Assembly (NCBI RefSeq): GCF_006345805.1
Contig: NC_043003.1
Coordinates: forward strand, 95,480,001-95,544,000
From: Octopus sinensis
Taxonomy: Eukaryota
DNA: 64,000 nt
Direction of reading: 5' to 3'
In this document: positions 861 to 48,634 of the stretch, piece after piece
How positions within the stretch are numbered: the first letter of the stretch is position 1
Layout: each line of letters opens with the position of its first letter
The notes under the pieces: model-generated
What the model was told of the DNA's origin: nothing
What the model saw: only the letters and a program-made list of their open reading frames with translations
Database searches by the model: none
Position numbers and translations under genes: made by a program

Positions 861-1070
861 AAGGAAAATATGCACACTTACATAGTTTTAATATATCGAC
901 CAGTTTCGCTATCGCTATTCATGATATTATGTGAATTTCATCACACACAACATGGACCAAATTTCTTCTTAAGAAAAAATATATATTCAAATAAATAAAA
1001 GATAATATCATGAATAGCGATAGCGAAATTGGTCGATATATTAAAACTAAGTAAGGGTGCGTATTTTCCT
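861..1070. repeat. Inverted repeat (arms ~861-930 and ~1002-1070), probably a Penelope-like terminus, with a minimal hammerhead motif in each arm
   Basis: The arms are near-perfect reverse complements. Each reads ATATC-ATGAATA-GCgataGC-GAAA-(C/T)TG-GTC-GATAT. Confidence 0.7.
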
Positions 1071-1224
1071 TTCTTAATTTCTTATATACATTACAACTCA
1101 CCACGTGGGGATAATCGAAATTCCTCTTTTCTGTTACTACTATTATATATATTATATATATTTCTGTTGAAATATACTGCCTTTAAATTAATTTTCAAAA
1201 TAATGAATTTATTAAAATAACTTT

Positions 1225-1627
1225 CCGAGCGTGGTTGTCTGCTAGCCTTGTCTGGCACCTGTGTCGGTGGCACATAAAAACACCATCCGAGCGTGGCCGT
1301 TCGCCAGCCTCGTCTGGCACCTGTGTCGGTGGCACATAAAAACACCATCCGAGCGTGGTCGTCTGGCACCTGTGTCGGTGGCACATAAAAAACACCATCC
1401 GAGCGTGGTCGTCTGCCAGCCTTGTCTGGCACCTGTGTCGGTGGCACATAAAATCACCCACTACACTCTCGGAGTGGTTGGCGTTAGGAAGGGCATCCAG
1501 CTGTAGAAACACTGCCAGATCTGACTGGCCTAGTGCAGCCTTCGGGCTCCCCAGACACCAGTTGAACCGTCCAACCCATGCTAGCATGGAAGGCGGACGT
1601 TAAATGATGATGATGATGATGATGATG
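1225..1627 (+). mobile_element. 5'-truncated RTE 3'UTR insertion with ~64-bp internal tandem subrepeats and an (ATG)n tail
   Basis: Matches the 3'UTR of the RTE at 7790-8035. Flanked by AACTTT on both sides (1219-1224 and 1628-1633), a putative TSD. Confidence 0.85.
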
Positions 1628-1804
1628 AACTTTGTCATTGTTAAGCTGGTGTTTGCATGAAATTTTAATGTTAAGATATTTAGATCATTTCAACGTGGGG
1701 AACTTTGAATCAGCATTTACGATGTTCTCAGGCAAATGACTATCAAAAAAGGCTAAGCAAATTCTCGTATTTTTTGTTCTTTTAAAATAGTTCTTTATTT
1801 TTTA

Positions 1805-2336
1805 ACTTGTTTCAGTCATTTGACTGCGACAATGCTAGAGCACCACCTATAGTCGAACAAATCGACCCCAGGACTTATTCTTTGTAAGCCTAGTAATTAT
1901 TCTCTTGGTCTCTTTTTGCCAAACCGTTAAGTTACGGGGACATAAGCACAAACATCAGTTGTCAAGCAATGATAGAGGGACAAACACAGACGCACAAATA
2001 TGTATATATATACACGACGAGCTTCTTTCAGTTTCTGTCTACCAAATCCATTCACAAGGCTATAGTAGATGATGCGAGCTGGCAGAAACGTTAGCGCGTT
2101 GGGCGAAATGCTTAGCGGTATTTCGTCTGTTGTTACGTTCTGAGTTCAAATTCCACCGAGGTCGACTTTGCCTTTCATCCTTTTGGGATCGATGTAATTG
2201 ACTTAATCCCTTTGTTTGTCCCCTCCATGTTTAGCCCCTTGTGGGTAGTAAAGAAATATATAGTAGAAGATGCCAGTGGGACTGAACCCAGAATCATGTG
2301 GTTGGGAAGCAAGTTTCTTACTACACAGCCACACCT
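1805..2336 (-). mobile_element. CORE-like tRNA SINE interrupted by a Meta-like SINE (~2074-2258, + strand)
   Basis: Homologous to the intact copy at 13481-13894. The insert matches the family at 32847-33076. Confidence 0.75.
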
Positions 2337-3000
2337 AAGCTTTTTGGTTTCATTAATTTAAAGCAGTTGGTTCTCGTGTATTTACATATATATTTCTCTA
2401 GATTAGGCACAAAGATCATTCATGTATATTTAGAAAGTTGGAAACCTGATTACATTCACATTTTGATTGAAGGTATAGATAGACACAAATGGTTCCAAAC
2501 AAGGAATTTTCATCACTTTTAAGGGTCAATTTTGCTGTTAGGTAGTACGCTTAATTCATAACCCAGTTTTAAGTTTGGTCATCTTTAGTGGTTGAATGAT
2601 AAATATCTCACCCTGAAAAAATTGTGGGTTTGGCCTTTCTTTCTAAGACTTAAAAGAAAAATAGATGCATCCATCAGATATATCAATTTTTTGTTGCCTA
2701 AGCATACAAAAACTGAAGAGATAAAAATAAAGATTGAAAATCAAAGAATTCTGTGCTTGGGTGGAAATGAAGTGATGGGGTGGAACTTTTATTCTATTCT
2801 ATCTTTCATTCACCCTCTGCATGGATTATGAAATTGCAACAGGTGAATGTATTGTGGTACTGGTTTCTATGGTGGCATCATGAGCTGATTCTCATTTCCC
2901 CAAATACAAACTACCAATCACTATTTCTCTTGCATAATCCAGAGGGGATCACAAACAATACTGATTTTCTGATACCCTGTTTATCACCAATACTCACCTC

Positions 3001-45530: not shown

Positions 45531-45914
45531 ACTCTTTACTCTTTTACTTGTTTCAGTCATTTGACTGCGGCCATGCTGGAGCACCGCCTTTAATCGAGCA
45601 ACTCGACCCCGGGTCTTATTCTTTTGTAAGCCCAGTACTTATTCTATTGGTCTCTTTTGCCAAACTGCTAAGTAACGGGGACATAAACACACCAGCATCG
45701 GTTGTCAAGCAATGCTAGGGGGACAAACACACACACATATATATATATATACGACGGGCTTCTTTCAGTTTCCGTCTACAAAATTCACTCACGAGGCTTT
45801 GGTCGGCCCGAGGCTATAGTAGAAGACACTTGCCCAAGGTGCCACGCAGTGGGACTGAACCTGGAACCATGTGGTTGGTAAATAAGCTACTTACCACACA
45901 GCCACTCCTGCGCC
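45531..45914 (-). mobile_element. CORE-like tRNA SINE
   Basis: Near-identical to 13481-13894. Confidence 0.85.
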
Positions 45915-47820
45915 TGTGTATGTGTTCTTAACATTTTTTCAAGTCAAAACAATCCAACTTATAAGAAACTAGCTTTATATGAATCCAAGCATTCCACCAG
46001 ATACAACTTCACCATTTTTCTCTGACATTCTGATATTTGCCAAAATTAAAATAACTGTTCTGCTAAGTTGATCTTGCTAACTTTTCCTTTCCAAGAGTCA
46101 ATAAGTCTCACGCCAAATAAGCATGGTCTACTTTTAGATAAATTAGATTCCAAAATTTAGAGAAACGGATTAAATATTATTTCATCTGGAATGTTGGCAT
46201 TCTTTTAAGTAATAGATATTTTTACTTTAGATAGATATATATATATATATATATATATATATATATATAAATGAGTTACAAAGTTAATATGTCAACTCTG
46301 CAAAATACAATAAAACTGAAATAAAAGCTATAGTAACTGAATAATTAAGGTCCTAGATCGAAATCTTATGGCGATTCAATACCAGTTTTAGGACTGATAC
46401 ATTATTCTATTTGCCAGCATCAGTTTAGGTGAAAGTTTCTACTTTTACTTAGCAATTGAAGAAAACAGTTAGATATAATAAAGACTCCATCATAAATTTC
46501 CAGTTGGTAATAAATACGGCAAAAAAATATCAGAATTTGCAGCACTATCCAACCTATGACATAATTTCATCTTCATCTTCGTGTTAATATTTTACATGAC
46601 TTAACCCTTTTGTTACTGTATCTATTTTGAGATGCTCTAGGTTTCTTTCAATTATTTTAAATATAACAAGGAATTTAGTAAAATAACTTAGCTGTCATTA
46701 AGCTAGTGTTAGGAGCATAAATTGTGACTAAGGTTTGGTGGAAGATTTTAATTCAAAATTTATGAAAACAAGACCTTTGTACTACAGAGCCAGAGCCAGG
46801 TTGGTATCGAAGTCGTAGTTTAATTATAACATAATAGACAGTGTTGCCCAAAATGAATTGACAATCATGTTTACTGACACAACTGACCAATCAGGTTAGA
46901 TTACAAAGTTATTGAATTAGACTGGATTCAATCAGATTAAAACCTGACTTTGCCAATGGTGATTTCAACTTACTAGATGAGATAGAAATTTATCTGGGTT
47001 CTCTGAAATGCAGGCATGGCATTGTGGTTAAAAACTTTGCTTCCCAACCACAAGGTTTAAAGTTCAGTCCCACTACATGGCACATCTTTTTTCGTTTTGT
47101 TTTGTTTTGTTAAATAAACAGTTGTCCGTGCAAATAAGTCTCCCCTTCTCCACAATATCAAGGTTATCTAAAGGAAATGCAAGGACTAATACAACAGGGC
47201 ACCAATATTGTCACAGACATTGGTACCATCAAAACATGAAGCCATAAAGTCAGACAATTAATACTACACACTATCGCTCCAATATTTCCAATATTTCGCT
47301 CCAATATTTCTGCTCCAACACTCCAATATTTCTGCATTTCTGCCAATCCACTTCCCTGGACCGTCATTATATTTATTGAATCCAAAATAATGAAAGACAA
47401 AATTGACACCAGTGGGACTGAAGTAAGAGCAAAACAGCCAAAACGAATACTGAAAAGCATTCTACCTTATGCTCTAACAAACAACCTATATTAATGATTA
47501 CATTAGTATTAAAAAAAGAAAACTAGAGTGGAAAGTAAATTAAAAGGTGTGCATAAACAATTGGCAAACAATATCTTTTTACATATACAATTCATTGCTA
47601 TTATGTCAAACTGTCGTATGTCCAAATTTGGCCAAATGCATTTTTTTCAATATATAATTTTGCTTGCAATAGTCGGTTCTTTTGGTCAAACTATTGTATC
47701 TCCAGCTGCTTCAGATGCCAAGATATGAAAATTGTACAACAGTTTAGCATTTTTCAAAAGTGTAGTAAGTTCCATATATGACGGCTTTGCAAAAATATTT
47801 CTGACTGAAAATATCATACA

Positions 47821-48214
47821 CTCGCAGTATCGCCCGGCGTTGCTCGGGTTTGTAAGGGAAATAATTATATAAGCATTTTTAGAGATGTAAAGTATAATAG
47901 CCATCTCAATATGGCTAACCACAAAGGGGGAGGGGTGTTACTGTAGCTTTTTACGTTCTGAGATTTAATAATAAATTTTAGAGAGTTACTTCCCTTATAT
48001 ATGTCAAAAATGGATTAAAAATGGGAAAAATTGATGGTAAATTTTTTTTAAATCGTAGACTCATCGTAGACGCGCGCTAATACCCAGACGGTCTCGATAT
48101 GAATCACGACTATAAGATACCCGGTTTTGGTTAAACTGCACCGCAAAATGTGGGAGTAGTTAGGAATTTAAATCGTAGGAGACAGACATACAACCTCACT
48201 TTTATATATAAAGA
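47821..48214 (-). mobile_element. Non-autonomous Helitron-like element
   Basis: 5' A|TCTTTATATATAAAAG. At the 3' end an imperfect GC-rich hairpin (cccgagcaacgccggg) precedes CTGCGAG|T, a CTAG-like end. No TSD. Confidence 0.7.
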
Positions 48215-48376
48215 TTTCCTCTATTTACATAATATTGAGGTCTCTTTCTTTCTTTTGTTATCTTACTGTTTTTACCAATATACATATATATATATATATA
48301 AATATATATATAGTTACAGAGATGTACTTGCATAGCAAGTGACTTGATCTGAGATCGTGTGCTGGAACGAAAACAG

Positions 48377-48634
48377 TTGCAGCGTTGAAGGTGTTTATAA
48401 GCCATTTAAGAAACACACAAAAACCGTTAGATTCACTTCAACATTTAAATTTAATTTGTCAAAATATTTTCGTCGCTTTGAGACCGCGACCTGTTAGCAC
48501 GATATTTTTGTCAGTGAACAGGTCGCGGTCTCAAAGCGACGAAAATATTTTGGCAAATTAAATTTAATGTTGAAGTGAATGTAACAGTTTTTGTGTGTTT
48601 CTTAAATGGCTTACAAACACCTTCCAGGCTGCAA
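48377..48634. repeat. Long inverted repeat (~118-bp arms, 21-bp spacer) of a Penelope-like terminus, with a G3-C8 hammerhead motif at 48507-48557 (+)
   Basis: 48377-48495 is the reverse complement of 48517-48634. Confidence 0.8.

Follow-up and report, generated by a model that had tools for sequence, protein, structure and literature searches.

The window studied here is a stretch of 64,000 nucleotides (nt) of the genome of Octopus sinensis (NCBI RefSeq assembly GCF_006345805.1, contig NC_043003.1, positions 95,480,001 to 95,544,000). In it, an earlier note had described six small type I hammerhead ribozymes, considered there in connection with Penelope-like retroelements, whose core positions 3 and 8 carry three different base pairs. 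All six motifs are present where they had been placed, with the cores CTGATGA, GTGAACA and ATGAATA, and each joins N3-UGA-N-N8-A, GAAA and a UH site by three stems, of which stem III would form only in a dimer. A literal C3-G8 pair is missing from the two families that we call B and C, in which pairing of position 3 with position 8 is observed at the family level.

Hammerhead Motifs and the Elements That Carry Them

The two motifs with the ATGAATA core are the paired arms of a single inverted insertion of family C. One lies at 893-927 on the minus strand (A3 922, U8 917, C17 898; stem I of 5 base pairs (bp), stem II of 2 bp) within the short inverted arm at 861-929 (minus strand), the 5'-truncated 3' end of a Penelope-like element, and its palindromic stem III has suffered one C-to-T decay. 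The other, at 1005-1039 on the plus strand (A3 1010, U8 1015, C17 1034), has two C-to-T changes in stem III and sits in the long arm at 931-1161 (plus strand), with TA runs on its flanks. Across 893-1039, stem II and its loop are nearly self-complementary (8 nt, two G·A mismatches) and could pair intermolecularly.

Family B provides the two motifs with the GTGAACA core, both on the plus strand and both with an extra G after A9. The hammerhead at 35468-35518 (G3 35475, C8 35480, U17 35511) belongs to a 3' end with full tail at 35457-35658 (plus strand) and has lost two of its five stem II pairs. The hammerhead at 48507-48557 (G3 48514, C8 48519, U17 48550; stem I of 7 bp, stem II of 5 bp) lies in an arm at 48496-48634 (plus strand), next to an inverted arm with tail at 48318-48495 (minus strand), which is truncated within the 5' core and lacks positions 3-5, so that its hammerhead is incomplete. 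This B insertion (48318-48634) is carried inside a younger composite repeat of 2.2 kb at 47811-49999, to which no strand is assigned; copies of that repeat are about 97% alike, with the inverted B insertion, a piece resembling a short interspersed nuclear element and a 100-nt tandem array as cargo. The composite repeat is spreading a hammerhead as a passenger, and its ends presumably resemble those of Helentron-associated non-autonomous elements.

The remaining two motifs have the CTGATGA core, and both are on the minus strand. At 36167-36214 (C3-G8, A17, a U·U mismatch opening stem II) the hammerhead is part of a solo piece (36023-36230, minus strand) of the very young 480-nt tandem unit of family A1, and at 44799-44879 (C3-G8, C17, long stem II, stem I of 4 bp) it is contained in a 3' end of family A2 (44746-44962, minus strand).

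The claim that these motifs have paired stems holds for the hammerhead architecture as such, but stem II is decayed at 35468, is opened by U·U at 36167, and stem III would exist only in dimers. Similarly, the six motifs do lie within one window, but they represent four unrelated families, and since such motifs recur about every 25 kb, their co-location has no joint meaning. Because the families are unrelated, the window alone cannot show that positions 3 and 8 change together; that joint change is seen in homologous sister families elsewhere.

Comparison with Shuffled Sequence

The window was scanned with a type I descriptor indifferent to the letters at positions 3 and 8 (stem I of at least 5 bp), with 30 local shuffles for comparison. 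Seven matches with a Watson-Crick 3-8 pair were obtained, against 0.7 in shuffles (maximum 4), while non-pairing matches were at the level of chance (2 against 1.7). Five of the six motifs are among the seven, and the one at 44799-44879 falls below the cut for its 4-bp stem I. In an unbiased scan of 464 kb, which is the window plus 200 kb on each side, there were 12 C-G, 3 G-C, 3 U-A and 1 A-U matches, that is 19 Watson-Crick matches against 1.5 in shuffles, with 4 non-pairing ones against about 5.5; both A-U copies of the window scored under the cut of this larger scan.

The three-stem monomer is the minimum-energy fold in none of the six, and Rfam gave no hammerhead among 100 matches at E<=5, the two C3-G8 motifs included.

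The G3-C8 Family and Its Sisters

The pattern of family B has 6,750 matches with none for the reversed-pattern control, and that of family C has 349, again with none for the control. G3-C8 stands in 92 of the 100 B matches listed and A3-U8 in 95 of the 100 C matches listed, so the unusual cores are states kept by families and not decay. The row tallies that follow, for g, h, the C-type architecture and the G10.1-C11.1 architecture, were made by eye from the first 100 matches listed, which are all on contig 1, with inverted arms counting twice.

Family B is characterised by the extra G after A9, a 5-bp stem II, a palindromic stem III and U17. Many of its 5'-truncated copies are inverted and bear the tail on one of the two arms. 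The pattern search replaced a first search for B, which was dropped since its 29 other loci belonged to one composite repeat or had its flanks and were not independent insertions. Across 39 B copies, recurring subfamily differences are located in loop II, a localisation that is weak evidence because the search pattern fixed many core letters. In contigs of four runs with four organism labels, no other letter at position 3 or 8 reached 3% or more among the rows listed. One of these runs, X7, guessed to be RNA, showed 11 A-to-G places on B at L204:2250-2480, against 1 in each of three other runs; inverted B arms would pair into long duplexes, so that adenosine editing is a possible cause, as are species differences.

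Two sister families, g and h, are homologous to B over 150 nt downstream of the ribozyme (z 5.5-9.4, a score reached by 0 of 200 shuffles), and the endonucleases of B and h share 46% identity (E 7e-16; h locus L256). Sister g has U3-A8 in 28 of 32 rows, with 3 U·G and 1 U·U, under a search pattern that left out G3 and C8. Sister h (1,820 matches, control 0) has C3-G8 in 81 of the 88 h rows listed, under a pattern that fixed C3; the other 12 listed rows were single mutants of g and B. Among 15 copies of this lineage, chosen by hand and inflated by related rows, the 3-8 pair is held in all (C-G 6, G-C 5, U-A 4), two stem II pairs have also changed on both sides, and sliding the partner positions abolished the covariation signal.

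The A3-U8 Family and Its Relatives

The wider C-type architecture has 3,059 matches and none in the control, and the 100 listed are divided into 57 U-A, 27 A-U, 11 U·G, 5 mismatched and no C-G. In an endonuclease tree, C joins the U-A family a in one group (95/94), to which the remaining U-A and U·G families do not belong. This tree, from which L215 and L173 were removed because their coverage was too short, is rough: 2 of its 12 inner branches have support, and the bootstrap had yet to settle. As C nests among U-A families there, its A-U state would most simply have arisen from U-A. The DNA downstream of C has weak homology to family c (z 2.8) and moderate homology to a (z 4.2).

Other members of this group have peculiarities of their own. 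Some c-type subfamilies (L211, L264-L268) carry one more U, placed between position 3 and stem I; if this U is bulged out, stem I extends to 6 bp and the predicted double hammerhead reaches the cofold minimum or comes close to it. Hammerheads with U3-A8 were also noticed inside a hairpin-forming frame (L213, L216, L206, L224; families b and e), and at two b/e loci the repeats are about 350 nt apart with no open reading frame (ORF) seen, which makes them candidate retrozymes with a non-canonical core. The stretches fetched, about 3 kb per locus, contained no ORF for g, b, e or L224.

The C3-G8 Families

Family A1, with its U·U mismatch, is the youngest family seen, with at least 40 places identical over 196 nt. 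Its 480-nt unit stands in tandem, in rows of up to at least 4, with one hammerhead and no ORF seen in each unit. A reverse transcriptase (RT) in L131/L132 was considered as A1's own and rejected, being 85-95% identical to that of family c; as the adjoining RT belongs to another family, no ORF could be linked to A1. Copies of A2 are 96-98% alike. Other copies of A2 (L157, L155) have an upstream ORF that is endonuclease-like, with motifs resembling the Hydra clade by eye, and for which no Pfam GIY-YIG match was found. Replacement of the G10.1-C11.1 pair at the opening of stem II is not restricted to the window copy: U·U is found in several C3-G8 families and A·A in others (36167-36214; L060:2405; 464-kb scan).

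States of the 3-8 Pair in the Genome

All four Watson-Crick states of the 3-8 pair, C-G, U-A, G-C and A-U, occur across this genome of 2.72 Gb; the B lineage holds G3-C8, U3-A8 and C3-G8, and the C lineage A3-U8 and U3-A8. For the architecture of G10.1-C11.1 plus GAAAC-NN-GUH, 11,256 of 14,208 matches are non-C3 and non-G8 (controls 1,465 and 2,579). The suspicion that searches requiring CUGANGA miss such motifs is thus borne out, at about 79% of the raw matches of this architecture. Of 100 such non-C3, non-G8 rows listed, 76 are U-A, 17 A-U and 7 mismatched. The only mismatch repeated there, G3·A8 in L220 and L221, was rejected as a family since neither stem I nor stem II forms, and among the matches listed, non-pairing 3·8 positions were not seen in any hammerhead family with more than one locus. 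About four double changes of the pair can be regarded as independent; all of them stay paired, two via transversions.

Penelope Context

The features by which Penelope-like elements are recognised are taken from Craig et al. (PMC8557442), of which, like the other papers cited here, the available part of the text is considered. The layout of endonuclease-containing (EN+) Penelope elements, in which an RT and then a C-terminal GIY-YIG endonuclease precede the 3' repeat on the same strand, is found in C, in B and in h (L256), and 5' truncation, inverted 5' arms, a tail on one arm and microsatellite or TA targets are all present. In family C, 17 of 60 fetched loci (16 distinct) have a same-strand upstream piece of an RT or zinc-finger/GIY-YIG ORF; roughly 300 nt separate the end of this piece from the core, and its Pfam matches are weak and below cut-off. 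In family B, an upstream region common to four loci leads in L204 to an ORF of 398 amino acids with a YVDD motif, a CxxxCxxC linker and a GIY-YIG domain (22.9 bits, cut-off 22.6), without an RVT_1 match, and a related ORF lies on the inverted arm of a B copy in L089. By eye, C (L110) and B (L204) have the marks of Neptune or Nematis, a CX2-5CxxC linker plus CCHH in the endonuclease; their ORFs are not alignable beyond the motifs. The proposed link to Penelope elements therefore stands for the A3-U8 and G3-C8 families and, by motif only, for 44799, but not for 36167, whose adjoining RT is that of another family.

The ORF of L203 was also considered as the partner of B and rejected, because four other loci share a different upstream region leading to the L204 ORF. 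In L203, a B 3' region directly abuts the truncated endonuclease of a different Penelope family, a junction that may have come from a template switch or a nested insertion. At L207:4885 and L243:1952, the core is immediately preceded on its 5' side by a stretch of pyrimidines that ends in CAG. This recalls the intron end overlapping helix I in Drosophila Penelope, and a different stem I could be provided by splicing, above all in L243, where a good one is lacking.

Two further features were noticed in the window. At 4972-7419 (plus strand) there is a broken element of the long interspersed nuclear element type, with an RT and a PHD-finger-like C-terminal piece, and at 51183-52364 (minus strand) an open frame of 394 codons that has no Pfam match and may be a host exon.

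Predicted Dimers and Proposed Mechanism

In dimers, the palindromic stem III would pair over 6 of 6 bp in B and C, 10 of 11 in A1 and 8 of 8 in A2. The double hammerhead is the predicted cofold minimum, on short fragments, for C (L046), A1, b and e, and lies 4 kcal/mol above the minimum for B (L204).

The mechanism that we propose is that two copies on one tandem transcript would join by their palindromic stem III to form a double hammerhead, which would cut slowly after N17, probably with help from the element's protein. Lineages whose master copy lost the 3-8 pair would mostly have failed to spread, and at one stage or another the RNA life cycle of the element would depend on the cleaving fold. 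Being solo or inverted and partly decayed, the copies in the window are probably inert.

Probable Selection on the Cleaving Fold and Rival Explanations

With a probability of roughly 0.7, we consider that these motifs represent minimal type I hammerheads which several Penelope-like families carry in their 3' repeats, that sister families have swapped the 3-8 pair and that the cleaving fold is likely needed in the RNA life cycle. Judged from their sequence, the motifs match the minimal Penelope hammerhead in every structural feature that can be tested. Since sisters differ from one another at both positions of a tertiary pair that belongs to the active fold, the cutting fold would itself be under selection, and the covariation suggests that it has been kept in this way. 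In PMC11167929, the single mutants C3G or G8C abolished, and the double mutant C3G/G8C partly restored, protein-assisted cleavage of a Penelope hammerhead.

Several observations weigh against this reading. Five of the six window copies as single strands fold no better than shuffles (z +0.5 to -0.9), and only copy 48507 folds better (z -2.1). Families B and g carry a UUU triplet at the cut site, and UUU is a poor cleavage site. None of the window copies has a second copy in tandem on its own strand, although tandems occur elsewhere for A1 and some C matches. The double hammerhead lies above the cofold minimum by 8 kcal/mol in g, 14 in h and 25 in A2. U3·G8 is fixed in a young subfamily of the C group (4 near-identical loci), and the independent double changes amount only to the four or so mentioned. 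Predicted monomers pair G3 with U17 in B and U3 with A17 in families a and c, an alternative of the inactive type comparable to the C3-G17 trap discussed in PMC3884650; that 3-17 mispairing is generally avoided is an idea we dropped, since a and c have U3 together with A17. Finally, the rescue by G3-C8 in vitro was only partial, cleavage was dispensable for insertion in vitro, and no Anolis RNA-seq reads end at the cut site, as far as the available text of PMC11167929 goes.

Some of these points lead to the idea that the hammerhead fold, with its 3-8 pair, is kept for recognition by the element's protein, as a packaging or priming signal, and that cutting is weak or irrelevant. We hold this to be unlikely, although it would explain insertion without cleavage and activity only with protein (PMC11167929), the low in vitro activity for which other functions were left open (PMC4209133), and the toleration of U·G, UUU and a 2-bp stem II. 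Genomic copies also extend about 150-190 nt beyond the cut site, so that they would derive from uncut or circular RNA. However, the 3-8 pair belongs to the active conformation (PMC3088659), and G12, A13, A14, A15.1-U16.1 and H17 are kept in every family seen, which is partly built in, as the patterns required these letters. Less probable still is an accident of founders, in which every family goes back to a single master, its ribozyme is vestigial and the few double changes are complementary by chance. The small number of double changes fits this view, as do the non-independence of copies as observations, the step from C-G to U-A by two common transitions with U·G intermediates fixed, and one old U·G family (L242, L243) without a good stem I. 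On the other hand, G-C and A-U each require two transversions, and by our own arithmetic (1/3 each) four complementary outcomes, given a double change, have a chance of about 1 in 80; stem II has compensatory changes in the same lineages, and 93 of the 100 non-C3, non-G8 rows listed pair. The shuffle-like folding of five copies and the lack of an Rfam match could also mean that these are chance matches in AT-rich repeats and no hammerheads at all. The controls refute this and leave it hardly any probability, since the enrichment over shuffles is confined to the pairing 3-8 classes, the reversed-pattern controls are 0 and the motifs have a fixed place in Penelope 3' repeats.

Comparison with Known Hammerheads

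Taking selection on the cleaving fold as the preferred explanation, the question is how much of it is new. Natural U3-A8 is not. Perreault et al. (2011; PMC3088659) reported natural covariation from C3-G8 to U3-A8, as well as a U10.1·U11.1 mismatch and a 2-bp stem II, and Cervera and de la Peña (2014; PMC4209133) found U3-A8 in Schistosoma with about 1,300 hits; their 56 representatives comprised 53 C3-G8, 2 U3-A8 and 1 U3·G8, with no G3 or A3. Like the motifs of the latter study, ours are type I, have a palindromic minimal stem III, are placed in 3' repeats and occur as solo and opposite-strand copies, and an extra nucleotide after A9 is common to those motifs and the B lineage. Contacts between loops I and II are poorly defined in the published minimal Penelope motifs (PMC4209133).

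Unlike in that study, G3-C8 and A3-U8 are here fixed in families of thousands and hundreds of copies, respectively, with sisters in other states in one genome. The available text of PMC3088659 names no natural G3-C8 or A3-U8, the states fixed in families B and C, and in Anolis the G3-C8 form of the Poseidon PAc hammerhead (PMC11167929) was made in the laboratory, whereas here G3-C8 is natural in a family with 6,750 matches. Nothing on positions 3 and 8 was found in the available parts of PMC6765202, PMC7229834, PMC6155905, PMC11014351 and bioRxiv 10.64898/2026.07.22.740005, and the literature covered has no natural G3-C8 or A3-U8 family; the survey of Lünse et al., Przybilski and Hammann (2007) and the figures and datasets of Perreault and Craig lie outside this coverage and may hold cases. 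Within these bounds, natural high-copy G3-C8 and A3-U8 families with sisters in other states appear to be new. Family A1 resembles the animal non-LTR (long terminal repeat) retrozymes (PMC7229834; bioRxiv 10.64898/2026.07.22.740005) in its tandem unit with one hammerhead each and no ORF seen, and differs from them in its short loop II and in the U·U opening stem II.

Significance

Why Penelope elements carry hammerheads is an open question, as in vitro activity is low and cleavage was dispensable for insertion in one study. The sister sets B, g, h and C, c, c2 are ready natural test pairs for it, and G3-C8 is apparently known to ribozyme biochemistry only as a partly rescuing laboratory mutant. 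Descriptors based on CUGANGA would miss from a third to four fifths of such motifs here, depending on the architecture, so elements that are said to lack hammerheads deserve a rescan. A more far-reaching reading, which we hold only tentatively and find doubtful as a whole, is that these are the first natural high-copy G3-C8 and A3-U8 families, that four Watson-Crick states and U·G exist in two Penelope lineages, that dimers are cut with the assistance of protein, that this cutting is needed in vivo and that most such hammerheads have gone uncounted. If true, it would amount to proof from evolution that Penelope elements depend in vivo on cleavage by their ribozymes, and in genomes like this one the greater part of the Penelope hammerheads would still have to be counted.

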